Shown one piece after another: positions 6,817 to 53,070 of a stretch of DNA of 64,000 nucleotides. The number at the start of each line of letters is the position of its first letter. Within the stretch, counting starts at the first letter, position 1. The translations under genes and the position numbers were made by a program. This DNA is from Candidatus Berkelbacteria bacterium. GTDB lineage: Bacteria; Patescibacteriota; UBA1384; DTJR01. The notes below the pieces were generated by a model, which saw only the letters and a program-made list of their open reading frames with translations, was not told where the DNA came from and ran no database searches. The stretch lies in NCBI GenBank assembly GCA_029865605.1, contig JAOUGE010000002.1, forward strand, positions 24,555-88,554, given 5' to 3'.

Positions 6817-7896
6817 ATGGCGAGAAAAACGAAAATTGAGGGGAGAAAACTGAAAACTGATACAAGCATAAGTTCAGGCAAGAAGCGCGCCCTTGAGGCG
6901 GCAATTTCTGTCATTGAAAAGCAGTTTGGCGCCGGAGCGATCATGAAAATGGGCCAAACTAAGAGTATGAATGTCGGGGTTATTCCAACCGGCTCGCTTT
7001 CTTTGGATTTGGCTCTTGGTGTGGGTGGCGTACCGCGTGGTCGGATAATTGAGATTTTTGGTCCCGAAGCGTCAGGCAAAACCACTCTTGCTTTATCGAT
7101 TGTTGCCCAAGCTCAGAAAAGCGGAGGGATGTGCGCTTTTGTTGATGCCGAGCACGCTTTTGACCCTGATTATGCCACAAAACTTGGTGTAGACACCGAT
7201 GGTCTGCTTATTTCCCAGCCGGATACCGGCGAGCAGGCGCTGGAGATCACTGAAACTTTAATTCGTTCAAACGCCCTTGATGCAATTGTCATTGATTCGG
7301 TTGCAGCGCTTGTGCCGCGAGCGGAAATTGAAGGAGAGATGGGGGATGCGATGGTCGGGGTTCAGGCAAGATTGATGAGCCAGGCTCTGCGCAAGATCAC
7401 CGGTACTGTTTCGAAATCAAAAACGGCAGTTATCTTTATTAACCAGATTAGAATGAAGATCGGGGTTATGTTTGGCAATCCGGAAACGACAACCGGCGGA
7501 ATGGCGCTTAAGTTTTACTCGTCGGTTCGGCTTGACACCAGGCGGGTTGAGCAAATCAAGCGCGCCGATGAGGTGATCGGCAATCGAATCAGGGTCAAAG
7601 TAGTCAAAAACAAAGTTGCTCCGCCTTTCAGGATGGCCGAATTTGAGCTAATGTACTCGACGGGTCTCTCGCAATCTGGGGAGGCCATCGATCTCGGGAT
7701 GAAATACGGGCTTGTTTTGAAAGCTGGAGCCTGGCTGACTTTGGCTGAGCCCAAAAAGCTGGGTGCGGAAACGGATAAGCTGGGCCAGGGTAGAGAATCC
7801 GCCAGGGGCTATCTCGATAAGAACCCGAAATTATTGGAGAAACTGGTTGATGAAATCAAAGCTCGCTTTCAAGAGGAATCAAAAGAAGATTCTTAA
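6817..7896 (+). CDS. recA: recombinase RecA
   Basis: GPEASGKTT Walker A, the canonical RecA core and C-terminal tail. The ATG at 6817 (MARKTK...) follows a GGGAGG Shine-Dalgarno, and the listed 6799 start is an upstream TTG. Confidence 0.95.
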
Positions 7897-23107: not shown

Positions 23108-25000
23108 ATGAGCCCGAAAAAAGCGCTTTGGCGCAAGGTTTCAAAACTCGTTTTAGTTTTATTTTTGATCTCCCAAGCCGTTCTTTTTGGTTTTAAAGGT
23201 GCTGATAGAGCCGAAGCGGCAAATATGTGGTTTGTGAAAGAGGGCGGGGCTGGGGACTGCTCGAGCTGGGCCAATGCCTGCGGTAATATCTTAACGGCAA
23301 TTTCTACTGCGGCAGAAGGCGATACGATTGCTGTTAAAGCCGGTTCGTATTCAGTTGTAGCTCCGATTATAGTCGATAAGCCCCTTAGTATTATCGGCTA
23401 TAAATCAGACGAGATAACCCCGGCATTTGATCTATATGAGACCGGCGAAGTGGATGGGCCTGATCTGACTGTCGGGGGCGACATAGGCACGGTGTTTTTG
23501 TTTGATGCTAACGAGATCCATCTTTCTGGCTTTCATATTGATACTACCTTCCCCGCGGCACAGGTTAGCGCTATCTGGCTAAATGGCGAGGTCAAATACC
23601 CAGTTATTGAATATAACCGCTTTGATTTTGAGGAGGCCGATTCGGCGATATATGTCGGTCCGCTTGCGAAGTTAGTCGCCCCGGCAGGCATTAATTTCAA
23701 CGTCTTTAATGGACCGGTGAATGCCAATGCTTTCTGGTTTCAGGTCGACACTGGCGGGTCGATTGATTTTGATTTGGGCTTTGGACTGCCTAATGAATTT
23801 GGCTATAGTTTTTTTGACCTTTCCTTTTATCATAACAGCATAAATCAATCCGGGGCGCTTTTTCAATTAGCTAACGGGATTGTAGGTAACGGTATCAAAC
23901 ACATCATATTTCTCTATAACACTTTTAGCAATTCCCAAGGATTCGTAATTTTTGATGAGATTGGAGATGCTGCTACCACAGCTAAACTCGATGACATATA
24001 TTTTATGTATAATACTTTTAATAATTCTCCAACACTTGATAATCAGTACGCGATTTTGCTCGGTGACGGCTTGGACAATGATGATGTCGCCGATGGCTGG
24101 GACGAAGATTTTATAATCCTTTTTAACAAGTTTAATCAGGCGAGGGACGATACCTATCCGACGGTTGGATTTACAAATGCGGGTTTAACCAATCCTACGG
24201 GGAGTATTCTCGCTTGGGCTAACTGGTGGGGGAGCGCTGATGGGCCAACTAATTTCACGACTGGCAGCGCCGCAAACGCGACGGTATCGGACCATATTAA
24301 TTTTAATCCATGGGCTACCGCCTCTAATTTGTCGGGGCTTTTTATTGATGCGTCTACTTTTGCAGATGTTGAATTGGGCCAGAGTTCATTTTTGCCTTCC
24401 CAGTTTACCGCTTATCTTAAACAGGGAAGTTTTATTGTTCCTCTACCCTCATATATTTCCGACCCCGAAACAATGTTTGATGAGGAGAAAATGCTTGGCG
24501 GGGAAGATGATTATAACTACGATATCACCAAGCCGCCGTATCTTGATGTGTATCGCAAAGTCGTCTTTGAGATTCCCAATAACGGGGGCAATATAGTTAT
24601 CACTATTCCTGATGACACTAGAATTTCTCCGGCCACTGGTAATGAAATTGATATCTCAAAGCTCCTGGCGCAAGCGAAGCTGACTTCTGCTCTGACTGGT
24701 CTCCCAAGCGGCTCTGAGGTCTTTGGCGCTGCCGAACTTGGTATCCCCAATCTGGGTCTTAATTTTAGCAAATCAGTTGAGATTAAAATCTATGTCGGCA
24801 CGAGTTTAAACGGCAGGACTTTAAGCGTTCGCCGTTCAATATCCGGCACAGGGGATTGGACGACTGAAGGCATAGAAGTATCGGATTGCACTATCAACGA
24901 GGGATATTGCACTTTCCAGACTACGAAAGCTTCCAATTTTGCTGTCGCTAATATTCCTTCATCTCAAATCTTGCCGGAAACTGGAGCGGGAGCGGAATAG
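23108..25000 (+). CDS. large secreted surface protein ending in LPETG
   Basis: N-terminal signal/TM (LVLVLFLISQAVLFGF). The protein ends ...SSQILPETGAGAE*. Confidence 0.7.
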   Translation: MSPKKALWRKVSKLVLVLFLISQAVLFGFKGADRAEAANMWFVKEGGAGDCSSWANACGNILTAISTAAEGDTIAVKAGSYSVVAPIIVDKPLSIIGYKSDEITPAFDLYETGEVDGPDLTVGGDIGTVFLFDANEIHLSGFHIDTTFPAAQVSAIWLNGEVKYPVIEYNRFDFEEADSAIYVGPLAKLVAPAGINFNVFNGPVNANAFWFQVDTGGSIDFDLGFGLPNEFGYSFFDLSFYHNSINQSGALFQLANGIVGNGIKHIIFLYNTFSNSQGFVIFDEIGDAATTAKLDDIYFMYNTFNNSPTLDNQYAILLGDGLDNDDVADGWDEDFIILFNKFNQARDDTYPTVGFTNAGLTNPTGSILAWANWWGSADGPTNFTTGSAANATVSDHINFNPWATASNLSGLFIDASTFADVELGQSSFLPSQFTAYLKQGSFIVPLPSYISDPETMFDEEKMLGGEDDYNYDITKPPYLDVYRKVVFEIPNNGGNIVITIPDDTRISPATGNEIDISKLLAQAKLTSALTGLPSGSEVFGAAELGIPNLGLNFSKSVEIKIYVGTSLNGRTLSVRRSISGTGDWTTEGIEVSDCTINEGYCTFQTTKASNFAVANIPSSQILPETGAGAE

Positions 25001-38503: not shown

Positions 38504-38544
38504 TATCTTGTTTGTTTTGAAATATTACGAATTGGTTCATTAAA

Positions 38545-38762
38545 AACTAAACCACATGTGCAGCCCCGCCTATGGTGGGGTGGGAAGTGAGGTTGGATTC
38601 CTCCACAGTCCCGCTACTGTAATCCTTTGAGCTTGCCCCGAGGCTTGCGCGAAGGGAGTCAGAAAACCAATATGTGGTAAAACCGCAGTCCGCCTCTTGG
38701 CGGAGGTGGTGCCTCGGTCGAGGGCAAGGTCAAACATGGCTTTGCGCCATGTTTTTGTTATT
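38545..38762 (+). promoter_or_regulatory. cobalamin (B12) riboswitch-like leader with an intrinsic terminator
   Basis: GGGAAGTGAGGTTGGATTCCTCCACAGTCCCGCTACTGTAATCC matches the cobalamin-element core (GGAA..GGUG.AA.UCC...C.G.CCCGC.ACUGU.A). GGGAGTCAGAAAACC resembles the B12 box. Terminator stem AAACATGGC/GCCATGTTT plus a T-run at 38733-38760. Confidence 0.65.
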
Positions 38763-39152: not shown

Positions 39153-40511
39153 TTACTTAAATAAATACGACCAAATCGTATAAAAGCTCAGCAGGCCGAA
39201 GAAAAGCCAGATAAGAAAAATAATCACTTTGCGAAGGGTGCTTGTCTCAATTTGATGAGGCAGGGCTTTTCGGTTTAGAAGATAGGTTGCTCCTATGTGA
39301 ACAAACATCGCCACGGCGTTAATTACAGCGCTGGTGATGACCAGGGTGAACGGGTCGGAATAGCCCGAGAGGAAAACGATTATTCCAGCGATTATCTGGA
39401 GCCATAAAATCGTGTAATAAACCTTGGAGAGATTTGCCTCTGTTTTTAAAATAACGAAGTTCTCGCTCATAATTCTTGAAGTTGAATCGAGCACTGTAAA
39501 CTGGGTTGCAAAAAGCATTACCGCTGCGATGAGGATGAAGAGAACCCCCAAAGTACTCCCGAGTATTCCGCCAAGGATTTTTGACTCGTAAAGGATAAAA
39601 TCTATCCCCTGGCTAGTGTCGGACCCGCTGGTTGTTGAATAGGCAATTAAGGCAAGCAAGATTATTGTAAAGGCTCCGGCTAGAAGAAAAACTAAGCCGT
39701 GCTCTATATTGACCGCTTTCCACCAGAGCCGGAAGTTGCTGATGTTTTGATCAGTTAGGCTAAATCTTTCGCCCTTAAGCGATATTTTCTCGCTTTTTCT
39801 GGTCAGGACGCTGGTGATGCCTTTTGCGCCGGCGCACATGCCGTAGCCCTTTTCTTTAATATAGAGAGATTGGGCTAAATTGAGATTACCGCCGGCACCG
39901 GCGTAAGCTAATGCTCCTAGAAAGGTTAGAAGCGGCAAGTCTTTGGGGATAAAAATGAAACCATCGCCAACACCCATGAGGCCAAGCCCCAGAGCTCTAA
40001 GGTCTGATTTTGTCGCTATAAGGCAGGCAATAATAAAAAGCAAGGGAATTCCTACCGATACAATCACTTTTTGAAAGGTTTCAACTGTCTTGTAGAGGCG
40101 AGGACCAAGGGTTAGGATGGCACCGATTAAAAGAAGAAAAATGATTGCCAGGTACTCAAAGTGGGCAATGCCGAAAACCTGGGCGAAAAGTTTGGCGCTT
40201 GATGCAATAATTCCTGGCCAAATCCAAGCAATAAATGTTGAAAATATGAACCAATAGGGCGCCAGGCGGAAATATCGAGAAAAGCCGATAAAGATGCTTT
40301 CGCCCCAGGCCAAGCTGTAGCGCTCAATCTCCATGTTCATAAAAAATTGGGCGGTGATGCCCAAAACTGCTGCCCAAATGATACCAAGGCCGAACTTTGA
40401 AGTTAAGTATGGCCAGAGGATTATTTCGCCCGACCCGAGCCCAAGCCCAAGCAAAATTATGCTTGGCCCGATAAGATACTTAAGCCGAGGGGCCTTTGAG
40501 AGATTTGCCAT
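39153..40511 (-). CDS. NRAMP-related membrane transporter (variant motif GSGE in place of DPGN)
   Basis: About 11 TM helices. GPSIILLGLGLGSGEIILWPYL...GLGIIWAAVLGITAQFFMNMEIERYSLAWG is laid out like NRAMP TM1-TM2. Confidence 0.45.
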   Translation of the reverse strand: MANLSKAPRLKYLIGPSIILLGLGLGSGEIILWPYLTSKFGLGIIWAAVLGITAQFFMNMEIERYSLAWGESIFIGFSRYFRLAPYWFIFSTFIAWIWPGIIASSAKLFAQVFGIAHFEYLAIIFLLLIGAILTLGPRLYKTVETFQKVIVSVGIPLLFIIACLIATKSDLRALGLGLMGVGDGFIFIPKDLPLLTFLGALAYAGAGGNLNLAQSLYIKEKGYGMCAGAKGITSVLTRKSEKISLKGERFSLTDQNISNFRLWWKAVNIEHGLVFLLAGAFTIILLALIAYSTTSGSDTSQGIDFILYESKILGGILGSTLGVLFILIAAVMLFATQFTVLDSTSRIMSENFVILKTEANLSKVYYTILWLQIIAGIIVFLSGYSDPFTLVITSAVINAVAMFVHIGATYLLNRKALPHQIETSTLRKVIIFLIWLFFGLLSFYTIWSYLFK

Positions 40512-41343: not shown

Positions 41344-41901
41344 TTACCAGTTCTTACATCTTGGTTCGTACCAGCTTTGAGGTTTCGCGCAGGCGGGGCA
41401 TTTTTCCGGTGCTTCTTTTCCCTTATGAACGTAACCGCAGTTTAGACATTTCCATTCAATCTCTTGATCGCGCTTGAAGACCGTTCCCGCTTCAACGTTT
41501 TTTAAAATATCTTTATAGCGGTCACGGTGTTTTTCTTCCACCTCTCCGATTTCTTTGAAGATGTCGGCGATTTCATCTTCTCCCTCTTCGCGGGCGATTT
41601 TTTCAAAACTTGGATACATCTCCGTTGTTTCGTAGTCCTCGCCGGCAATGGCGGCTTTTAGATTTTCAGCAGTTGTTGAAACGGGGTCATGAGCGACATC
41701 CGCGGCCGTTTTTGCGCCTTTTTCAACAAATTCCAGTTCTCTTTCGGCATGCTCCATTTCATTCCCGGCAGTTTCCTCAAATATCCTGGCGATTCCCTCA
41801 AAACCTTCGTCTCTAGCCTTGATGGCAAAGAAATTATATTTATTCCTTGCCTGCGATTCTCCGGCAAACGCCTTTAGCAAATTCTCTTGGGTTTTTTTCA
41901 T
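41344..41901 (-). CDS. rbr: rubrerythrin
   Basis: Ferritin-like diiron E..H motifs (EMEHAERE, EDYETTEMY) and a C-terminal rubredoxin-like CLNCGY...CPAC. Confidence 0.85.
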   Translation of the reverse strand: MKKTQENLLKAFAGESQARNKYNFFAIKARDEGFEGIARIFEETAGNEMEHAERELEFVEKGAKTAADVAHDPVSTTAENLKAAIAGEDYETTEMYPSFEKIAREEGEDEIADIFKEIGEVEEKHRDRYKDILKNVEAGTVFKRDQEIEWKCLNCGYVHKGKEAPEKCPACAKPQSWYEPRCKNW

Positions 41902-41957
41902 ATTGCCTTTCTTTTAGTTTTTCCTATTCCAATTGCTATAATAAATCAAGAGGGAGA

Positions 41958-43358
41958 AAAATGGAAGAAGCAAAGAAAAAGCCGAGTAGGAAAGTTTTGG
42001 AGAAATTAGCTAGTGTACCAGCAATAGCCGTTGAAGAGACAATTGAGGCAACTGAAACTGTTGGCAGGACAGTCATCAAGCAAGAGTCGGTTAAAAAAGC
42101 GAAGGAGTACTGGGAAATATTAGGCCCCGGTCTTTCAACCGGCGCGGCCGATGACGATCCGTCGGGAATTGCTACTTATTCCCAGACTGGTGCGCGCTAC
42201 GGATATTCTTTAGCCTGGCTAGCGGCCTTTAGTTTTCCTCTGATGGCGGTAGTTCAGGAGATGTGTGCCAGAATTGGCTTGGTGACGGGCCGCGGTTTGG
42301 CGGCTAACATAAAGCATTATTTCCCCAAATGGGTTCTTTATACGACAACAATTCTTCTTTTTATCGCAAATACCTTCAATATTGGGGCGGATTTTGGCGC
42401 TTTGGCAGCGGCGGTCAGACTGTTTTTTCCCACCCTTAGCTTTACCTTAATCGTAATCGCTTTTGCTGTGCTCATCTTGGGGTTACAGGTTTTTAGTTCC
42501 TATCGCAACTATGCTAAATATTTAAAATGGTTGGCCCTGGTTCTTTTTTCATATGTGCTCTCGACCCTGATGATTAGGGGATTAAATTGGCGCGATGTGG
42601 GTCTGAGTGTTGTCACACCCCACCTTGATTTTTCACGAGATCAAATCATATTGATTTGCGCCATTTTAGGGACGACTATTTCGCCGTATCTTTTTTTCTG
42701 GCAAACATCGCAGGAAATTGAAGAGAAGATAATGCAGGGAAAAACAAAGATTTCTGAAAGGCAGCATGATTTGAAAAAAAAGCATATCAGTGATATGAGA
42801 ATCGATGTTTGGTCGGGGATGTTCCTTTCCAATTTAGCGATGTTTTTTATTATCACTGCTTGCGCAGCAACTCTTAATGCTAGTGGGCTGACCAATATTC
42901 AAACAGCTGCCCAGGCGGCCGAAGCGCTTCGGCCGCTAGCAGGGGATTATTCGTATTTACTCTTCGCCGTTGGCATCATCGGGGTAGGGCTTTTAGGCAT
43001 TCCGATTTTGGCTGGCTCGGCATCATATGCAATTGCCGAAAGTTTCGGCTGGAAGGAAGGACTAAGCTATAAATTGAAGCAGGCCTCCGGTTTTTACGGA
43101 GTAATTATTCTCTCGATTGTGATCGGGCTTCTCCTTAATTTTGTAGGTCTTGACCCGATTAAAGCGCTTATTTACTCGGCAGTGGCCAACGGCCTTGTCG
43201 CACCGGTCGTTTTGGTCTTGATTGTTTTGCTAAGCTCTAATCGAAAAGTTATGAATCAATGGGTCAGTGGCCCAGCAACGAAAATTGTTGGCTGGGCGGC
43301 AACAGTCATTATGGTAATTGCCGGACTTGCTACGATCTATTCTATTTTTACTCTTTAG
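41958..43358 (+). CDS. NRAMP-family divalent metal (Mn2+/Fe2+) transporter
   Basis: GPGLSTGAADDDPSGIATYSQTGARYGYSLAWL...MAVVQEMCARIGLVTG. ATG at 41958 (MEEAKKK). Confidence 0.75.
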   Translation, partial: KMEEAKKKPSRKVLEKLASVPAIAVEETIEATETVGRTVIKQESVKKAKEYWEILGPGLSTGAADDDPSGIATYSQTGARYGYSLAWLAAFSFPLMAVVQEMCARIGLVTGRGLAANIKHYFPKWVLYTTTILLFIANTFNIGADFGALAAAVRLFFPTLSFTLIVIAFAVLILGLQVFSSYRNYAKYLKWLALVLFSYVLSTLMIRGLNWRDVGLSVVTPHLDFSRDQIILICAILGTTISPYLFFWQTSQEIEEKIMQGKTKISERQHDLKKKHISDMRIDVWSGMFLSNLAMFFIITACAATLNASGLTNIQTAAQAAEALRPLAGDYSYLLFAVGIIGVGLLGIPILAGSASYAIAESFGWKEGLSYKLKQASGFYGVIILSIVIGLLLNFVGLDPIKALIYSAVANGLVAPVVLVLIVLLSSNRKVMNQWVSGPATKIVGWAATVIMVIAGLATIYSIFTL

Positions 43359-45512: not shown

Positions 45513-46244
45513 ATGAAAGAGCCGATTTCGACATATCTCAAGGGTTATAGGGAAAAGGCCGATTTGACTCAAGGGGAGTTGGCGGAAAAGCTGGGGATCT
45601 CGAGACAGTCTATCATTTCGCTTGAATCGGGAAGATGCATTCCTTCGGTTATGCTGGCTTTGAAAATCGCCAAATTTTTCGAGCTTCCAGTTGAGTTTAT
45701 TTTTAGAGAAAATTTTAATCAATTTGAGTCTCTGGTCGATGAAATAATTAATGAAAAGAAGGGAGATAATATGACAAGAGATCTTATGCCTTGGTCGCCG
45801 TGGCGAGAGATGATGAGTCTTCGGGAAAACATTGACAGGTTTTTCGAAGAGCCGATGTCTCCCGCGAGAGCGTCTAGCGGCATCTTCCATCCGGCCATTT
45901 CAATTCGTGAAACGGATAAAGAAATGGTTATTGAGGCCGATGTTCCTGGAGTTAAAGAGGAAGATATTGATGTCGAGATTGAAGATGATAAGGTTATCAT
46001 CAAGGGGGAGAGGAAGCACTCTCAAGAGGTAAAGAGGGAAAACTACTATCATATGGAGAGTTCATACGGTTCTTTCTCCAGGGTAATCGGCTTACCAAGC
46101 CATGTCCGGGCCGATAAAGCGGAGGCGGAGGTTACCGACGGAACACTCAAAGTGAGAATCCCCAAGATAGAAGAGAGGAAACCAAAGAAAATTAAAGTTG
46201 CGACCAAGAAAGTCGAAGCAAGCAAAAAAGCGATAAAAAAGTAA
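45513..46244 (+). CDS. XRE-family HTH domain continuous with an Hsp20 / alpha-crystallin domain (one ORF; an internal Shine-Dalgarno and ATG at 45768 could also give a stand-alone Hsp20)
   Basis: N-terminal LTQGELAEKLGISRQSIISLESGRCIPS. From 45768: MTRDLMPWSPWREM...IRETDKEMVIEADVPGVKEEDIDVEI...GTLKVRIPK. AAGAAGGGAGAT lies 4 nt before the ATG at 45768. Confidence 0.6.
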   Translation: MKEPISTYLKGYREKADLTQGELAEKLGISRQSIISLESGRCIPSVMLALKIAKFFELPVEFIFRENFNQFESLVDEIINEKKGDNMTRDLMPWSPWREMMSLRENIDRFFEEPMSPARASSGIFHPAISIRETDKEMVIEADVPGVKEEDIDVEIEDDKVIIKGERKHSQEVKRENYYHMESSYGSFSRVIGLPSHVRADKAEAEVTDGTLKVRIPKIEERKPKKIKVATKKVEASKKAIKK

Positions 46245-46263: not shown

Positions 46264-46288
46264 AAAAAGCCCCATCGCGGGGCTTTTT
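46264..46288. terminator. bidirectional intrinsic terminator
   Basis: AAAAAGCCCCATCGCGGGGCTTTTT, a GC stem flanked by A-runs and T-runs on both sides, between convergent genes. Confidence 0.75.
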
Positions 46289-46300
46289 CTATATAAAATG

Positions 46301-47998
46301 TTATATTACACTTTTCTGATAGCAATCTTCGCAGTAAACTTTCTCTGGTCTATCCGGTGCATAGGTCGTTTCAAATTCGTTTTTGCAACCTTGGTTCATA
46401 CATTTTCTATGCCAGAGTTTACGGGGGTTGCGTAAGGCAAAACGTTCTTTGTATCTAATATTATAGTGTTTGGTTGGAATAGGTATTTTATTTTTAAGAT
46501 AATATGCTAACTCTTGCGGCATAATTTTAAATGGTTTATTTGATATCTCACACTTTAGTATCCCAGCAAGCAGTTTTTCTCTTTCATTTTCATTTTCGAT
46601 GTATTCATCAATATCATCTTTTGGCTCATAAAATGGTCCGTTGTACTTAATGCCATAATCTTTATCCTGCCACTTAGCATCAAGCTTTAGAGCCCCCTCT
46701 TTTTCAAGAGGAAAGTAGTCCATAGCCACTGTCTCGTTATAGCCAAAGGGACTTATTGAAACAGGGAAAAACTCTCCCCATTCGCCGTCTTTTTGCATTT
46801 TCTCAATTATCTGACCCGTTAACTTCTCATATTCTTGTTTAGAGTATTGTTTATTTAAAATGCAATATTGTTTATGGCGAAGACCGACACAGCCGAAGCA
46901 ACGCGAACAATATTCGCAGTGATTACAATACAGGTTGTTGTCTCCGTATGTAGCCCAAGTGCAAAACAAGTGCTTGTATCCAGCAATGCTTTCTCCCTCA
47001 TAACAGAGCTGCATTTCAGCAGATATATTTAAATCCTGGCAATCTTTTGCATCGCTATCGATATTATAAATTTTTTTGCAACCCTCGCACTTATAAGAAT
47101 TATATGAATCCTTGCAGTTTTTGCATTCGACTAAATAATCACCAGTGCATCCCTCTGATTTCTTATTGTTGTCGGATTTTCTAATGACACCTAGTTTGAT
47201 CCTTTTAAGTTCATTTATCAGGTTCCTTTGGATAGAACGGCTGGACAGATTTATTTTTTTAAATTCTTCAAAATATTTTTCTTTTGTATACTTTTTGTTT
47301 TTGATGTAGTACTGCTTGTTTCGTAGGTTCGTGCATAGCAAGACATTGTTGCACCCCTTGCAATCGTACGAGAAATGGGATTCAGTGCAGTTCTCACAAT
47401 GCTCCAAAAAGGTGGATGAATTACACTTGTCACAGTCAGTACAAAAGTAGCAATTCTCGCAATTCCTAACATAGAAGCAGTCTACGCAATCTTTCACCCT
47501 AAGAATTTCATTCGAGTAATAGCAGCTTTCGGCATATCCAGCGATAAAACACAAATAAGAATCCTTTAGGTGCCAAACTTCTTGGCAATATTCGCAGTTT
47601 TCGACAATTGTGGAGAGGGTTGCGAGTTTTGGAACTTGTCTGAATAAACTTTCGAATTGGGAGAAAAAATCTCGTTTTGAATCAAAATCGCAGCCATATT
47701 TTAGCGGATCCCAGTCGTCTTTCCATATTTCAATATTTTTCCAGACTTTGTATGGTTTGTCCGGAGAGTAGATGCTAATAATATTTTCTTGCGTTTTATC
47801 ACACTTTCGTTTGTATAGATTGGTAGATGCTTCCCAAACCATTCGCCTTTGGTCTCTACATTTTGGACACAGTGTCGGCGGAGGAATTTCGTAGGTTTTA
47901 CCCGCAAAAGTAGGGGAGATTTTTTTATAGAACTCTAAATCCTCGTCCTCAACGACGAATTTCTGATCGCACTGTTTACAGGTCTTATTCATACTCAT
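46301..47998 (-). CDS. cysteine-rich protein, paralogue 1 of 3 (unrecognised family)
   Basis: 565 aa. N-terminal CKQCDQKF...LCPKCR, dense CxxC runs, and a C-terminal ...FETTYAPDRPEKVYCEDCYQKSVI. Its ATG overlaps the upstream stop (ATGA). Confidence 0.7.
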   Translation of the reverse strand: MSMNKTCKQCDQKFVVEDEDLEFYKKISPTFAGKTYEIPPPTLCPKCRDQRRMVWEASTNLYKRKCDKTQENIISIYSPDKPYKVWKNIEIWKDDWDPLKYGCDFDSKRDFFSQFESLFRQVPKLATLSTIVENCEYCQEVWHLKDSYLCFIAGYAESCYYSNEILRVKDCVDCFYVRNCENCYFCTDCDKCNSSTFLEHCENCTESHFSYDCKGCNNVLLCTNLRNKQYYIKNKKYTKEKYFEEFKKINLSSRSIQRNLINELKRIKLGVIRKSDNNKKSEGCTGDYLVECKNCKDSYNSYKCEGCKKIYNIDSDAKDCQDLNISAEMQLCYEGESIAGYKHLFCTWATYGDNNLYCNHCEYCSRCFGCVGLRHKQYCILNKQYSKQEYEKLTGQIIEKMQKDGEWGEFFPVSISPFGYNETVAMDYFPLEKEGALKLDAKWQDKDYGIKYNGPFYEPKDDIDEYIENENEREKLLAGILKCEISNKPFKIMPQELAYYLKNKIPIPTKHYNIRYKERFALRNPRKLWHRKCMNQGCKNEFETTYAPDRPEKVYCEDCYQKSVI

Positions 47999-49725
47999 AT
48001 AACTGCTTTCTGATAACAGCTCTCGCAATATACTTTCTCTGGTCGGTCGGGGGCGTAGGTGGTTTCAAATTCATTTGGGCAACGACTAGAATGTCCATGC
48101 TCTGTTTCTTCACACATGCACTGGCGGTGATATAAATTCATTTTATTGAACATATCCAGTCGCTCTTTGTATCTTACATCAGGATGTTTTCTCGGTATTT
48201 GGAGTTTATTTTCGATATATTGAGCTAATTCTCGCGGGATTATCTTAAATGGTTTCCCAGAAACTTCGCACTTGATTATACCTTTAATGCATTTTTCTAT
48301 TTCATCATTCGCATCGGGGTTGTATTCTATATCATATTCTTTTATATCCTTCGGCTTATAATAAGGCCCAGCATTTTTTGTGGAGTAATCCTTGTCTTGC
48401 CATTTTAGGTCAAGTCTTTTTGCCTTATCTTTTTTAATTGGAAAGTGCTCGAAAGCGTTTGATTCATTGTAGCAAAATGGTGAGATAGCGGTCGGAAAAA
48501 ATTCTCCCCATTCACCCTGTTTTGACATTTGTTCGATAATTCGGGCAACCTTTATCTTGTATTCCTCCTCGGAATATTGCTTGTTCAAAATACAATATTT
48601 TTTGCGATTTAAACTTACACATCCAAACAAATCATTGCTGTTAGTACAGTTATAACAATAATATGAATTTCTGACTGAATCACAAGAAGTCATAAATGCT
48701 GAATTATATAATTTTGTAGAAGATGCGCCCTCATAAATAAGTTCGCCTCGGCCAATTGAGAGGGCATCCATAATCTCTTTCATACTATCAATCATATAAA
48801 CATAACGAGCGTTCTCGGTTTTGTAACAATAATAACTGTCCTTAACATCCTTGGAATTAAGCATTATATCTCCCGTACAATCACCTTGGCAAGAAATCAC
48901 AGTAACATACTTAAAGGGATATCTGAGTTTATTTTTTTTAGACATTGCTTGAGCTCGCATTACCCCCTCATAGCTATCGGTATATTCTTTAACCCTTTTA
49001 AGATACTCTTCTTTTTTTAGTTCTTCGTTAAAAAAATAGTATTTTTTATAACGCAGGTTTGTTGAGCTAAAACAAGAGTTGCATCCAACGCAGTCATTGC
49101 AGAATAAACAATCATTGCACATATGGCAATTGAACAAATATTGACTATCAAAGCATCCTACAGAGAAGACACTATTATGAACTTTATCTGAATAGCCGAC
49201 ACCAAAACAATCTGTCATGTCATTTCCGTGGATACAGCTATTACAATGGAAACAATTTCTGTTGTCGTTTCCTCCAGTACATAAATAACAATTGCTGCTG
49301 TTCATTTCCTGATTTACAAATTCACTATTTTCACAGTTTGTTGCAAAAAGGGTCAGAAGGTAGGTGCTATGCAATAGGTCATCGAATTGCTCAAAAAAAG
49401 ATCTGTTAATATCATAATTCCGCTCGCTTTCATGCTGGTTCCACTTATCTGACCAAAAACAATCCTTGCATAAAGCCTTTGGTTTTTTGTCGGGAGAATA
49501 CACGGAAATTATCTCTCTTTTGCAGATTGAGCACTCATTTTTATAAAACTTTCTTTCGTTTCGCCAATTCATTCTTCTTATCAATCGACACTCAGGACAC
49601 AGTGTCGGCGGCGGAATTTCAAAAGTCTTGCCGGCAAATGTCGGGGAGATTTTTTTGTAAAAGGCTAGGTCGTCATCTTCAACGACGAACTTTTGGTGGC
49701 ATTGTTTGCAGGTTTTATCAATCAT
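47995..49725 (-). CDS. cysteine-rich protein, paralogue 2 of 3
   Basis: 576 aa with the same architecture. Ends ...FETTYAPDRPEKVYCESCYQKAVI. Its ATG overlaps the upstream stop (ATGA). Confidence 0.7.
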   Translation of the reverse strand: MIDKTCKQCHQKFVVEDDDLAFYKKISPTFAGKTFEIPPPTLCPECRLIRRMNWRNERKFYKNECSICKREIISVYSPDKKPKALCKDCFWSDKWNQHESERNYDINRSFFEQFDDLLHSTYLLTLFATNCENSEFVNQEMNSSNCYLCTGGNDNRNCFHCNSCIHGNDMTDCFGVGYSDKVHNSVFSVGCFDSQYLFNCHMCNDCLFCNDCVGCNSCFSSTNLRYKKYYFFNEELKKEEYLKRVKEYTDSYEGVMRAQAMSKKNKLRYPFKYVTVISCQGDCTGDIMLNSKDVKDSYYCYKTENARYVYMIDSMKEIMDALSIGRGELIYEGASSTKLYNSAFMTSCDSVRNSYYCYNCTNSNDLFGCVSLNRKKYCILNKQYSEEEYKIKVARIIEQMSKQGEWGEFFPTAISPFCYNESNAFEHFPIKKDKAKRLDLKWQDKDYSTKNAGPYYKPKDIKEYDIEYNPDANDEIEKCIKGIIKCEVSGKPFKIIPRELAQYIENKLQIPRKHPDVRYKERLDMFNKMNLYHRQCMCEETEHGHSSRCPNEFETTYAPDRPEKVYCESCYQKAVI

Positions 49726-51449
49726 TTCTCTTCATCCCAATAGCACTTTTCACAATACACTTTTTCTGGTTTTTCAGGAGGATATGAAGTTTCGAATTCC
49801 GTCTTACATCTGCCTTCGTGGTCATGGTCTGTTTCTTCGCAATCGCACTGACGATGGAATAATTTTATATGGTTTATTAAATTGAATCTCTCGGTGAACC
49901 GAGTTTCAAAGTGTTTCTGCGGAATAGGTATCTTATTTCTAATATAAAAATGCAGCTCTTGAGGTGTAATTTTATACGGTCTGCCGCTAACTTTGCACTT
50001 TAAAACTCCGTCTAATAGCTCCTGTCGCAATTTCTCGCTTTTTGCATATTCAACAATTGCTTTCGGCTCGTAGGGCGTGCCGTCAAATTTCAGGGAGAAG
50101 TCGTCATCTTGCCACCCAAATCCAAGTTTCTGTGCCTCTTCCTTACTCAAGGGATAATAATCGTTAGCGATCGTCTCGTTATACCCAAAAGCGCTAACAT
50201 TATTTGAAAACCACTCTCCCCACTCCTCATCTTTCTGCATCCGCCCAATTATTTTCGCAACCGTTGCCTTGTATTCTTCTTCGGAGTATTGCTTGTTTAA
50301 AATGCAGTGTTTTTTATGGTTTTTGACTCCGACGCAACCAAAGAGACTGTCGCAGTAGTAGCAGTGATCACAGTAGAACGAGTTGGATAATTGATAGGCA
50401 AAAGAGATAAACGAACTTCTGGTTGTTCCAAGGCCGATGTTTGTTCCTTGATACAGCAGTTCGCCGGTATTGCCGAAACCGGATACATCATAGGAGTCCT
50501 TGGTCGAAAACATCCCGTAGCAGAATTTGCAGTCCTCGCAATTCGTCATCATAAAACATCTCTGGCAGTTTTTAGAATCGAAAATATCCTCTCCTGAACA
50601 ATTTTCGCTCCGCAGCATTTGGGAGAATTTCTTGGGGCGAGAAATTATTATTTCTCTGAATTCTTTTCTATATTCATCTATCTTTGTCTCAAGTCCGGCT
50701 AAAAATTCTTTTTTTACTTTTTCGTATTCGTCTTTTTCAAGTTGTTGATTTTTATAGCAATATCTTTTTCTGTACAGGCAGCTGCATAGGATGCAGTCAG
50801 CACAACTGTTGCAATCTTCTATAAAATACGAATCTCGACAATTTCCGCAGTTTATCGACCAATTGATGTTATAGCATTTGCCAAGGTTTATTCCTTCGTA
50901 ACAAAGTTCGCTAAATGCGCCGAAGGTGAGATCAACGCACGATTTACAATTATCAACGTAGTAGCCGTAATAGACGCTCTCGTTATTTCCGGCTAAAAAA
51001 AGCAGATAGCAGTCTCTGTTTCCGTCGGCCAAGTTGGTATATTCGGAGTTTTCCGATTTTACATTCATAAGGGCCGCCTTTGGAACAGCGGTCTTTAACT
51101 CAGCGAATTGTTGGAAAAACGGCTTTAAGGGATCGAAGTCGCGCCCGTATTTTAGCGGCTCCCATTTGTCTGACCACCAGCATTGCTGGCAATAAACAGT
51201 TACTTTTTTATCTGGCGAATAGACTGTGATTATGTCTTTCTGGCACAAATCACACTTTCTTTTATAGAGTTTCACCACGTTTCTAAAAGCAAAACGGATC
51301 TGCTGCCGGCAATCTGGGCACAACGTCGGCGCTGGCATCTCGTAGGTCTTACCCGCGAAAGTAGGGGATATTTTTTTGTAAAATATTAAATCGTCGGCGG
51401 TGACGGCGAATTTGGTTTTACATTGTCGGCATTGTTTTTCTAGGGCCAT
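49722..51449 (-). CDS. cysteine-rich protein, paralogue 3 of 3
   Basis: 575 aa. Ends ...FETSYPPEKPEKVYCEKCYWDEEK. Starts 9 nt after the L,D-transpeptidase stop. Confidence 0.7.
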   Translation of the reverse strand: MALEKQCRQCKTKFAVTADDLIFYKKISPTFAGKTYEMPAPTLCPDCRQQIRFAFRNVVKLYKRKCDLCQKDIITVYSPDKKVTVYCQQCWWSDKWEPLKYGRDFDPLKPFFQQFAELKTAVPKAALMNVKSENSEYTNLADGNRDCYLLFLAGNNESVYYGYYVDNCKSCVDLTFGAFSELCYEGINLGKCYNINWSINCGNCRDSYFIEDCNSCADCILCSCLYRKRYCYKNQQLEKDEYEKVKKEFLAGLETKIDEYRKEFREIIISRPKKFSQMLRSENCSGEDIFDSKNCQRCFMMTNCEDCKFCYGMFSTKDSYDVSGFGNTGELLYQGTNIGLGTTRSSFISFAYQLSNSFYCDHCYYCDSLFGCVGVKNHKKHCILNKQYSEEEYKATVAKIIGRMQKDEEWGEWFSNNVSAFGYNETIANDYYPLSKEEAQKLGFGWQDDDFSLKFDGTPYEPKAIVEYAKSEKLRQELLDGVLKCKVSGRPYKITPQELHFYIRNKIPIPQKHFETRFTERFNLINHIKLFHRQCDCEETDHDHEGRCKTEFETSYPPEKPEKVYCEKCYWDEEK

Positions 51450-51458
51450 GATTGATAA

Positions 51459-52913
51459 TTACCTGTGAATATAAACCGGTGTTCCGATATCTGCCCAATT
51501 ATACACTGTTTCAGCGCTGCCACGTCCTAGTCGCACGCAGCCATGAGAAACTGGAGTGCCCAGGTGGCTTTCGCCTTCCTTGGCCCCGCTTGGCCATTCA
51601 GGTAGTTCATGAATTCCATAATCACTGCCGATAAAAGACATCCAATAGGGCATATACAGGCCATATTTCTGTGAATATGCCCGGGGATCTTTGTTATTGA
51701 TAGCATACTCTCCGATCGGGGTCGGCATAGACCATTTCCCGGTTGAAACCTTATGACTGCCGACCATGTTCGATCCCTCAAACTGATAAAGCATCTGTTC
51801 AGAGAGATTTATCTCGATGTATCTTCCCGGATATTTGCCGGGGGTGAACCCTGGTGCAACGTATTCCGTTTCTATTTCCGAAGTGGTTACCTCAAGGGTT
51901 GCTTTCGTTTCCTTATTATTAAGAGCGTTGACTAGAATCTCTTTGCTTTTTTTCTCATCAACTTTTAACCCCTCACGACCTTCGGATACGAGAGAGCCAT
52001 CATAGGTTGAAATCTGTTTTGGTCGTGCTCGCTGGTTGATTTTTTTTGAGAGTTCTTTCAAATAATCTTCAATTGACTGATCACCAAAAGTAAGTTTTTG
52101 GTTTAAGACCGTCCTTTCAACGTCAATAAGTTCAAGTATATTCTCTCTCTCAAGATAAGTCCTCCTGTAGGAGTAGGATAATAAAATTCTCGATCGTGAA
52201 ACTTCTTTTATTGCATCTAGAAATGGCACTAGGTCAGAAGTGACGATATTACTTTTTGTTGGATATTTTTCCCCGTAAAGTTTTCCGCTGCATCCGAGCA
52301 GAAAGCACCCTTCAATTCCGTTTTTTAGTCGAGTGTAATTTATGGCATAGCCGGCCTTTTCATCTTCTATTTTTACCTCGTCGTTTTCGAGCTTTAATTT
52401 TGGGTTCTCCGGATCGGCTTTTTTGCTAGGAAATAGTTCGAGAAATGTTTTCTCGGGCGCTTTTATCCAGAGCTTAACTGGTAAGGCATAAATTTCTTTG
52501 TCGGTCGTCTGGCGCAGGTAGGCGGGGGAGGGAAATATTCCGGCCAGCTTACCGAAGTTTAAGATCTTACCTGGGCTTTGGACGTAATCAATCGTGACGC
52601 CGAGTTCAATGTATGATTTCGAGATTTTTTCGCCTTCGAACTCGATTTCAATCTTCTGGTTGTTTTTTTCAATAAAAATTTCTTGGAGCTTTGAGATTAT
52701 TTGCCCCTTATTAAGCCCTCCTAAGTCCTCTCCGTCTACCTTTATAAATGGTAGGGATTTATCTTTATAGGCGTAGGCGAAGCCTCCATAGAATAGGATG
52801 AGAACTCCTAGTAAACACAAAAAAGCCGCCAAAAAATACTTGCCAAATCTAAACCTTTTGGCAGTATTCTTGATCGTTTCTACAATCTTCGCCTTTTTTA
52901 TTTCTTCTGCCAT
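51459..52913 (-). CDS. L,D-transpeptidase (YkuD domain) with an N-terminal membrane anchor
   Basis: C-terminal ...HLGTPVSHGCVRLGRGSAETVYNWADIGTPVYI (His/Cys catalytic motif). TM at residues about 25-47. Confidence 0.8.
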   Translation of the reverse strand: MAEEIKKAKIVETIKNTAKRFRFGKYFLAAFLCLLGVLILFYGGFAYAYKDKSLPFIKVDGEDLGGLNKGQIISKLQEIFIEKNNQKIEIEFEGEKISKSYIELGVTIDYVQSPGKILNFGKLAGIFPSPAYLRQTTDKEIYALPVKLWIKAPEKTFLELFPSKKADPENPKLKLENDEVKIEDEKAGYAINYTRLKNGIEGCFLLGCSGKLYGEKYPTKSNIVTSDLVPFLDAIKEVSRSRILLSYSYRRTYLERENILELIDVERTVLNQKLTFGDQSIEDYLKELSKKINQRARPKQISTYDGSLVSEGREGLKVDEKKSKEILVNALNNKETKATLEVTTSEIETEYVAPGFTPGKYPGRYIEINLSEQMLYQFEGSNMVGSHKVSTGKWSMPTPIGEYAINNKDPRAYSQKYGLYMPYWMSFIGSDYGIHELPEWPSGAKEGESHLGTPVSHGCVRLGRGSAETVYNWADIGTPVYIHR

Positions 52914-52995: not shown

Positions 52996-53070
52996 CGGCC
53001 CGTAGCTCAGCGGTAGAGCGGCGCTCTTATAAGGCGTATGTCACAGGTTCGAATCCTGTCGGGCCGACCA
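52996..53070 (+). tRNA. tRNA with anticodon UAU (Ile, AUA-decoding) by manual folding; CCA encoded
   Basis: Acceptor CGGCCCG/CGGGCCG, D-arm GCTCAGCGGTAGAGC, anticodon stem GCGCT/GGCGT with loop CTTATAA, T-arm ACAGGTTCGAATCCTGT, ACCA end, and a downstream terminator hairpin ATGGCGTAAGCCAT plus a T-run. Confidence 0.6.

Follow-up and report, generated by a model that had tools for sequence, protein, structure and literature searches.

The locus and its genes

Three tandem genes for cysteine-rich proteins, here named A, B and C, were analysed in a stretch of 64,000 nucleotides from a Candidatus Berkelbacteria bacterium (positions 24,555 to 88,554 of contig JAOUGE010000002.1, assembly GCA_029865605.1). 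This whole stretch is called the window below, and its numbering is used throughout. An open reading frame (ORF) scan agreed with a preliminary description of the locus in finding four co-directional minus-strand genes arranged head-to-tail. The first is a gene for an L,D-transpeptidase (51459-52913, 484 amino acids, OEV37_01000-equivalent), which is followed by A (49722-51449, 575 amino acids, OEV37_00995), B (47995-49725, 576 amino acids, OEV37_00990) and C (46301-47998, 565 amino acids, OEV37_00985), the last three annotated at NCBI as "hypothetical protein". As read from the sequence, a gap of 9 nt separates the L,D-transpeptidase gene from A, and exact ATGA stop/start overlaps are found between A and B (49722-49725, where the ATG of B overlaps the stop of A) and between B and C (47995-47998), just as had been described. 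The length of C is counted from the ATGA start. Two alternatives exist for it, a second ATG (563 amino acids, the NCBI call) and a TTG at 48028 (575 amino acids, the mechanical longest ORF), and the alignment of C with A and B favours a start at the ATGA or at the second ATG.

The array ends at a bidirectional terminator-like hairpin of the intrinsic type (46264-46288), common to a convergent gene for a helix-turn-helix (HTH)-HSP20 protein. The hairpin lies between the convergent genes, is flanked on both sides by A- and T-tracts and has a folding energy of -21.7 kcal/mol (z = -6.8 against shuffled sequences), in support of the terminator already proposed at this position. A simple terminator scan of the window did not include it in its list.

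The possibility that A, B and C are a misassembly or a collapsed repeat of a single gene was considered and rejected, given the divergence of the copies at the DNA level and their presence in independent assemblies. The proteins are 40% (A/B) and 45% (B/C) identical, 40-45% over the three paralogues, and their genes show only patchy similarity, 65-83% in short stretches. Moreover, proteins identical to all three are encoded in a 97.5-kb contig of a Candidatus Berkelbacteria metagenome-assembled genome at NCBI, with A as a 100% match to protein P0001. These data show A, B and C to be genuine genes that have diverged from each other rather than a product of faulty assembly. The GC content is 36-37% in B and C and 41-42% in A and the L,D-transpeptidase gene, compared with 45% in the window, where it reaches 0.53-0.57 at 58-62 kb. 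The low values of B and C may be due to a composition rich in Cys, Asn, Lys and Tyr rather than to a foreign origin.

The assignment of the first gene also held. The protein matches the YkuD family (PF03734) with 83.2 bits against a cut-off of 23.4 (3.7e-23) and PG_binding_4 (2.5e-10), and it carries an N-terminal hydrophobic anchor and the active-site SHGC motif (SHGCVRL), as expected from a membrane-anchored L,D-transpeptidase with an HGC motif. Judging from the gene arrangement, it is probably co-transcribed with A, B and C in this genome.

Domain organisation of the cysteine-rich proteins

Conservation was measured on an alignment of 217 full-length family members, and the residue numbers given here are those of paralogue A. 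Its minus-strand gene can be divided into six regions. An N-module (residues 1-125, 51075-51449), which is basic and predicted to be a double treble-clef/LIM-like zinc-finger module, is followed by a first Cys-ladder repeat (residues 126-236, 50742-51074) that ends in an L-x2-K-x-Y...N-K cap. A long linker helix, rich in Lys and Glu (residues 237-272, 50634-50741; helix 239-269 in an AlphaFold2 model), leads to a second repeat homologous to the first (residues 273-385, 50295-50633), which ends in FGCVGL..K.YCILNKQY. Then comes a conserved acidic core (residues 386-480, 50010-50294) with the pattern EWGEFFP...SPFGYNE...W446, and finally a C-module (residues 481-575, 49725-50009), homologous to the N-module and basic, with an isoelectric point (pI) of 9.1 and a net charge of about +6.

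Self-comparison and profile-profile alignment show that this organisation includes two independent internal duplications. The N- and C-modules are homologous over around 100 residues (hhalign 99.8%, E 3e-29), and so are the two repeats (around residues 126-245 and 273-398; hhalign 99.9%, E 9e-34), the latter in accordance with the duplication of two Cys blocks noticed in the preliminary description. The two terminal modules differ in which of their sites has been kept. In the N-module, site 1 (C7/C10/C44/C47) is present in at least 93% of the members and site 2 (C66, C69, C87, C90) is degenerate in most of them, and the reverse is found in the C-module, where site 1 has degenerated and conservation at site 2 (C535/C548/C566/C569) is 97% or more. 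C372 and C382 of repeat 2 are also well conserved (92-94%).

The charge of the proteins is distributed along the same regions, in such a way that the terminal modules are basic (family median pI of 8.1 for the N-module and 9.1 for the C-module) and the repeats and the core are acidic (4.7-5.4). Conserved Arg and aromatic residues follow the zinc knuckle of the basic modules (CPxCRxQRR..RN), and the repeats are rich in Cys, Asn, Ser and Tyr. The least variable segments are not rich in Cys: they are residues 376-425 (CILNKQYS...EWGEFFP...SPFGYNE) and 551-575. The most variable one is the linker, with an entropy of 3.04 bits over residues 251-275. Among A, B and C, the identity is 58-75% over residues 1-60, 55-67% in the C-module and 14-37% in the repeats, so the middles are diverged as described before, but the ends are well below the near-identity that had been claimed for them. 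Similarly, 40 or more cysteines had been attributed to each protein and the actual numbers are 38 in A, 39 in B and 41 in C; the enrichment itself is clear, since these numbers represent 6.6-7.3% of the residues, around 10-fold the median of 0.63% found in 23 other ORFs of the window.

No transmembrane-like segment and no hydrophobic N-terminus were detected in A, B or C. Because of this, and because of the conserved zinc fingers, the proteins are likely cytoplasmic, as proposed in the preliminary description. Some family members are longer, such as P0259 (808 amino acids); these were viewed by eye for fused domains, and the extension does not look general.

Cysteine register and structural models

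The occupancy of Cys in the individual columns of the repeats ranges from 25 to 94%; nonetheless, the register is strict. Between residues 135 and 234 the cysteines are confined to one of the three possible phases, and 86% of the Cys-Cys spacings in the repeats are multiples of three. The autocorrelation of Cys positions peaks at lags of 3 (0.64) and 12 (0.60), which amounts to a frame of 12 residues with four ladders. The last coil of repeat 1 (C213-x2-C216-x2-C219-x2-C222) is conserved in 81-94% of the members. Runs of the CxxCxxC type are present in 204 of the 217 proteins, with means of only 0.48 CxC and 0.31 CC per protein.

An AlphaFold2 model of A, obtained with an alignment of 48 sequences, had a mean predicted local distance difference test (pLDDT) of 82.6 and a predicted template-modelling score (pTM) of 0.82, and the 200 C-terminal residues modelled separately reached a pLDDT of 90.1. 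In the model C44-C47 are placed at the start of a helix. The repeats were modelled with a pLDDT of only 56-68, as a solenoid shape similar to that of beetle antifreeze proteins, with beta-bridges about every 12 residues, so this part of the prediction is of low confidence. According to model and register together, the repeats probably form a narrow solenoid with a coil of 12 residues, held by Cys4/CxxC metal sites.

Regarding the metal, either Zn or Fe-S had been suggested. We infer from the motifs that the cysteines bind a metal and that zinc is the most plausible one, because CxxC knuckles are present and Fe-S motifs are absent: the ferredoxin motif CxxCxxCxxxCP was found in none of the 217 members and the radical-SAM motif CxxxCxxC in 14, and neither of them in A, B or C. 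The assignment of zinc to the four best-conserved Cys4 sites is plausible.

Family size, distribution and tandem arrays

The family had been described as unrecognised, and the searches agree with this. Pfam and NCBIfam scans of A, B and C gave nothing above threshold, and no PADLOC family matched them at E ≤0.1. No significant match was obtained in PDB sequence searches, either with a single sequence or with a 48-sequence profile, nor when the models were compared by Foldseek with solved structures, the conserved core being also without a match. In the PHROGs collection there was nothing above threshold, the repeat giving a weak match to a PHROG of unknown function (E 3.5e-5). Full-text literature searches returned no description of the family. 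Thus, no confident full-length match to a characterised family appeared in the sequence, profile or PDB fold searches.

In spite of this, the family is large. There were 4,407 matches in a database clustered at 90% identity, and an exhaustive profile search retrieved 5,449 representatives at 50% identity, 2,343 of them below 1e-30; nearly all of the 5,449 are 540-600 amino acids long and match from end to end. Among GTDB species representatives there were at least 586 confirmed matches, and the best 80 all belong to Patescibacteria: Berkelbacteria, WS2, Peri-, Peregrini-, Gracili-, Abawaca-, Nomura-, Staskawicz-, Lipton- and Gribaldobacteria, and bins labelled as Saccharibacteria. In all the sources that name the organism, the family has been seen so far only in Patescibacteria, also known as the Candidate Phyla Radiation (CPR). 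Among 2.9 million viral contigs of IMG/VR only one partial match, at a contig edge, was found. A tblastn search of phages with the full protein gave no match, and with the repeat region it gave only matches of E ≥0.06 to Cys-rich hypothetical proteins of phages.

To look at the gene context, 82 related loci were surveyed, including flanks of up to 10 kb in both directions. Two or more copies were present in 61 of them, always co-directional, with at least nine in view in four loci. The 4-nt stop/start overlaps recur in the arrays of the relatives, so the translational coupling described for the window is found in other genomes too. Each paralogue of the window has an orthologue in other genomes with 53-61% identity, compared with 35-47% identity within arrays. 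Since orthologues are closer than array-mates, the arrays are ancient and vertically maintained and not the result of recent amplification, in line with the old duplication kept under selection that had been suggested. Matches of 2-2.5 kb in some Peribacteria and Gracilibacteria copies, taken at first as insertions, were discarded because they are merged neighbouring copies. Truncated family ORFs of 115-382 amino acids were observed within otherwise intact arrays (loci L018, L020, L030 and L046); these may be pseudogenes or frameshifts, which would point to some decay within arrays.

Genes associated with the arrays

Recurrent neighbours were identified by clustering all the flanking ORFs of the 82 loci. 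The most frequent one, detected in 32 loci, encodes a TrmB-family winged helix-turn-helix protein of around 250 amino acids. As a rule this gene is divergent from the array and lies 80-300 bp ahead of the first copy, and in some loci it reappears before each sub-array. The second one, in 16 of the 82 loci, encodes an ATPase of around 747 amino acids and is always co-directional with the array and within 900 bp of it. This ATPase scores above the Pfam cut-offs for T4SS-DNA_transf, TrwB_AAD_bind and TraG-D_C, lacks a transmembrane-like segment in 14 out of 18 cases, and shows weak matches to the mad8 and HerA models of PADLOC. Other genes of type IV secretion systems (T4SS), such as virB, do not recur in the flanks of the 82 loci.

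The association was also studied in the opposite direction, using the ATPase subfamily as a query against metagenome contigs. Of the 80 loci retrieved, 14 contain a family member, and in all 14 it lies at 1.5 kb or less and on the same strand. ATPases at least 56% identical to the array-linked clade adjoin the family in five of six cases, and paralogues with 41% identity or less almost never do. In Peri-, Peregrini-, Gracili- and Abawacabacteria the genes appear as a cassette formed by TrmB (-), one to seven Cys-ladder genes (+) and the VirD4-like ATPase (+) (L010, L014, L018, L030, L045, L054 and others). In two loci (L014 and L068) a separate TrmB gene stands ahead of each sub-array, which suggests that sets of paralogues are individually regulated.

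A recent survey reports 5,713 VirD4-like coupling-protein homologues in 2,918 genomes of Patescibacteria, with only 148 of the homologues near virB4; most lie far from it, and their role is unexplained (PMC12102498).

The designation of the locus as an L,D-transpeptidase operon implied a functional pairing, and a constant adjacency to this enzyme in related genomes had been put forward as a check. Neither was confirmed. Out of the 82 loci, a single one contains a YkuD gene at a distance of up to 10 kb, and there it is around 10 kb away and on the other strand. The closest relatives have no YkuD neighbour; their arrays lie among housekeeping genes, ligA, gatCAB, pgk/tpi, fba and tig in the case of the nearest Berkelbacteria. 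A conserved partnership was therefore rejected, and the L,D-transpeptidase beside the array appears to be a coincidental neighbour.

Two further neighbours were observed in particular lineages. A hydrophobic ORF of around 100 amino acids, 70-73% identical between genomes, lies within or just after arrays of Berkelbacteria and WS2 (L001, 16923-17225; L085, 13068-13370; L005, around 7147-7401). By eye it has the look of a membrane protein with several passes; this window does not contain it. In a block of the Nomurabacteria type (L047, L050, L063, L067 and L080), the order is scpA, scpB, a gene for an M15/VanY-like peptidase (-), one or two family genes, mraY and ftsW, with the gene names read from the sequences. 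Here the family adjoins cell-wall genes in a second case, independent of the first, but the five related loci amount to a single synteny block.

Compared with the preliminary description, which dealt with the window, the additions are the scale of the family and its restriction to Patescibacteria, the arrays with nine copies or more, the homology of the N- and C-modules, and the TrmB and VirD4-like neighbours.

Other features around the array

On the other side of the shared terminator, a single plus-strand ORF (45513-46244), convergent with the array, encodes a protein of unusual architecture, in which an XRE-type HTH_3 domain (6.8e-13) is joined to an Hsp20/alpha-crystallin domain (1.2e-22). 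Upstream, the unit is bounded by a tRNA-Ile gene with anticodon UAU (52996-53070, plus strand), located between the L,D-transpeptidase gene and the gene for a CAP-domain protein and detected by ARAGORN and by the Rfam tRNA model (72 bits). A tRNA-Ile(UAU) that reads AUA, in place of a CAU tRNA modified with lysidine, is seldom found in bacteria.

An Nramp-family divalent-metal transporter (8e-83) is encoded 3 kb from the array (41847-43358, plus strand), with an 11-nt overlap with the end of a glutamate dehydrogenase gene. In the clustering of flanking ORFs, no recurrence of the Nramp gene next to the family was seen in other genomes. A cobalamin riboswitch aptamer is found at 38542-38686 on the plus strand (38.9 bits, with an Rfam gathering score of 31.5), and the first ORF of at least 150 amino acids downstream of it (39153-40511) is on the opposite strand.

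Discussion

We propose, as a tentative account with somewhat less than an even chance of being correct, that these proteins are zinc-stabilised clients or adaptors of a VirD4-like ATPase. Each protein would be a pseudo-symmetric, metal-stabilised module in which basic double zinc-finger ends flank two acidic Cys-ladder repeats, with the conserved non-Cys core lying beside the C-module. The conserved termini and the core may serve as a constant "handle" for docking to a partner that all copies share, and the diverged surfaces of the solenoids would give each paralogue its own specificity. The proteins would be expressed as co-regulated, translationally coupled sets and handled, as clients or adaptors, by a motor ATPase of the hexameric type. 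This reading is based on the cassette of the Gracilibacteria class, TrmB-[Cys-ladder]n-ATPase, genomic context being the only functional clue.

Several data weigh against this client or adaptor role. The association is uneven, in such a way that TrmB is found in 27 and the ATPase in 10 of the 43 loci of the Gracilibacteria class, and few of the Berkelbacteria, Paceibacteria-like or Saccharibacteria-labelled loci have either; the window itself holds neither a TrmB nor an ATPase gene. The counts do not represent independent events, as many of the loci with these neighbours are related by phylogeny. The number of copies, from one to at least nine, argues against a fixed hetero-oligomer. Finally, the repeats were modelled with a pLDDT of only 56-68, which makes both the solenoid and its metal sites tentative.

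The same context could be explained in other ways. If the proteins were autonomous nucleic-acid-binding structural proteins, the basic ends would grip DNA or RNA, the rigid acidic solenoids would serve to space them or to mimic DNA, and the TraD/FtsK-like ATPase would be a translocase on the same substrate. The basic terminal modules with conserved Arg and aromatic residues after the knuckle, the acidic repeats, and the DNA-binding domain of the ATPase family (TrwB_AAD_bind) all fit with this, but no known family of nucleic-acid-binding zinc fingers reaches threshold, and the structures that come closest, LIM and PHD fingers, mostly bind proteins. We consider this reading unlikely. Alternatively, the proteins could be effectors recruited by the VirD4-like ATPase and exported through the T4SS of Patescibacteria into or onto their hosts, with the basic C-terminus as a signal and the solenoids as host-targeting elements. 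Genes for coupling proteins classically adjoin those of their substrates, for example relaxases (PMC12102498), and the co-directional adjacency to a VirD4/TrwB-family ATPase was found in both directions of the search. The family is lineage-restricted and amplified, its C-module carries a charge of about +6, and the T4SS of Patescibacteria has been reported as apparently specialised for a role other than conjugation. Against this stand the scarcity of membrane segments in the array ATPases, the lack of other recurrent T4SS genes, and a report that a homologue of the type IV coupling protein is non-essential for epibiotic growth. The paralogues, in addition, are ancient and conserved across classes, without quick turnover; zinc fingers conserved at both ends suit an intracellular protein better, and the link to the ATPase is limited to some lineages. 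Export is for these reasons rather improbable. The same low probability is given to a bolder version, in which the "orphan" VirD4-like ATPases would have their missing cargo in this family and the arrays would be batteries of zinc solenoids passed to the T4SS, or to another exit, toward the host bacterium. If this were true, much of the CPR would for the first time have a candidate effector family in common, and export would have a direct bearing on how the epibionts among the Patescibacteria manipulate their hosts.

Other readings put the emphasis on the cysteines, the arrays or the cell wall. With Cys around 10-fold over the background and CxxCxxC runs in nearly all members, the proteins could serve as a buffer or store of metal or sulfur, or as redox or Fe-S proteins in which the approximately 38 cysteines mainly hold metal ions or clusters, and the Nramp transporter 3 kb away would be in keeping with this. 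However, ferredoxin, radical-SAM and metallothionein signatures are missing and the Cys content is far below the approximately 30% of metallothioneins. Around half of the protein, including its best-conserved stretch, is conserved without being Cys-based, and bulk storage requires neither ancient diverged paralogues nor dedicated regulators; as the Nramp gene is not recurrent either, a storage role seems quite unlikely. A set of anti-phage or conflict sensors, whose diversified solenoids recognise invaders and signal to the P-loop ATPase, is brought to mind by the tandem paralogues with variable central repeats and by the weak matches of the ATPase to mad8 and HerA and of the repeat to a PHROG. 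We regard it as very unlikely, since the family has no PADLOC match and no effector domain, and the arrays lie among housekeeping genes and are made of old paralogues with no recent turnover. As for a partnership with the L,D-transpeptidase or with peptidoglycan metabolism, the short gap (9 nt) and the common strand suggest that the genes are co-transcribed here, and the Nomurabacteria-type block also places a family gene between an M15/VanY-like gene and mraY-ftsW. Nevertheless, the context survey largely refutes this reading: YkuD is virtually absent from the other loci, including the closest relatives, the Nomurabacteria block is one synteny in five related loci, and the family is cytoplasmic by all indications while the enzyme acts outside the membrane. 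It is thus extremely improbable.

Coming back to the role as clients or adaptors of the ATPase, the reciprocal adjacency provides a testable handle on the purpose of the coupling-protein homologues that lie far from virB4 (PMC12102498). The investment in these genes is also large: with genomes of around 1 Mb, some Patescibacteria nevertheless give at least 15 kb in one locus to the family, at least nine copies of around 1.7 kb each lying inside a view of 21 kb. Despite this scale, no name, Pfam model or relative among solved structures was found for it. A strict three-residue Cys register over around 100 residues points to an unusual solenoid, filled or stapled with metal, that would be of interest for structural and bioinorganic chemistry. 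Uncharacterised families are common in the CPR, and the present value of this one is as a well-defined target rather than as a demonstrated mechanism.

Comparison with known systems

The closest known counterparts of the terminal modules are the zf_Tbcl/LIM double zinc fingers, with which they share the CxxC...CPxCR knuckle-plus-helix pattern. The "probable treble clef" families zf_Tbcl (PF13451) and zf_Tbcl_2 (PF23477) gave weak matches in 18-19 of 48 members, the best being 9e-6 and 1e-5; A scored 13.4 bits and C 15.6 bits, with no match for B, and the cut-off of PF23477 is 27 bits. These scores speak of resemblance and do not demonstrate that the proteins belong to either family. Regarding the treble-clef/LIM class, which is defined by four metal-binding ligands on a knuckle and the N-terminus of a helix, the two four-Cys sets of the termini are conserved (≥93% and ≥97%) and the fold matches to the class are weak: a LIM-like match over the C-terminal site in the PDB profile search (E 0.06), and the tandem zinc finger of Stc1 as the top, non-significant, match by Foldseek. 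Such domains span around 15% of the family protein at most, and they are without an established function to transfer.

For the repeats, the nearest comparators are narrow beta-helices: the antifreeze protein of Tenebrio molitor (TmAFP, 1ezg), the left-handed beta-helix acyltransferases and the gamma-carbonic anhydrases. The hexapeptide repeat of the left-handed beta-helix (Pfam Hexapep, [LIV]-G-x4) together with a significant fold match was not found, and neither was the combination that defines the insect antifreeze proteins (PF02420), which is a 12-residue repeat TCTxSxxCxxAx, secretion and one disulfide per coil. Assignment to the 4Fe-4S ferredoxin, radical-SAM or SPASM proteins is at odds with the lack of their motifs in A, B and C and of Pfam or NCBIfam matches, and a motif survey showed no DnaJ or metallothionein signatures. 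Metallothioneins have fewer than 100 amino acids and around 30% Cys in CxC, CC and CxxC clusters. The family resembles these and other poly-Cys metal binders in its many cysteines and abundant CxxC, but differs from them in its length of around 570 amino acids (565-576 in A, B and C, with 6.6-7.3% Cys), its Cys content of around 7%, its large conserved non-Cys domains and its rare CxC and CC.

At the level of the system, the best parallel is offered by the VirD4/TraD coupling proteins and their substrates, such as relaxases and the T4SS effectors of the XVIPCD type, where a VirD4/TrwB ATPase also directly adjoins co-directional proteins that share conserved termini. For a placement among T4SS substrates, which depend on a coupling protein for export and carry a C-terminal signal recognised by it, the present observation is gene adjacency to the VirD4-like ATPase. 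The differences are that the array ATPase mostly lacks the N-terminal membrane anchor, that no T4SS genes flank the arrays, that relaxase and toxin domains are missing from the family, and that the link is confined to some lineages. Taken together, the family fits none of the described kinds of protein or system with which it was compared, and the building blocks from which it appears to be made, zinc fingers and a Cys-rich solenoid, are familiar folds.

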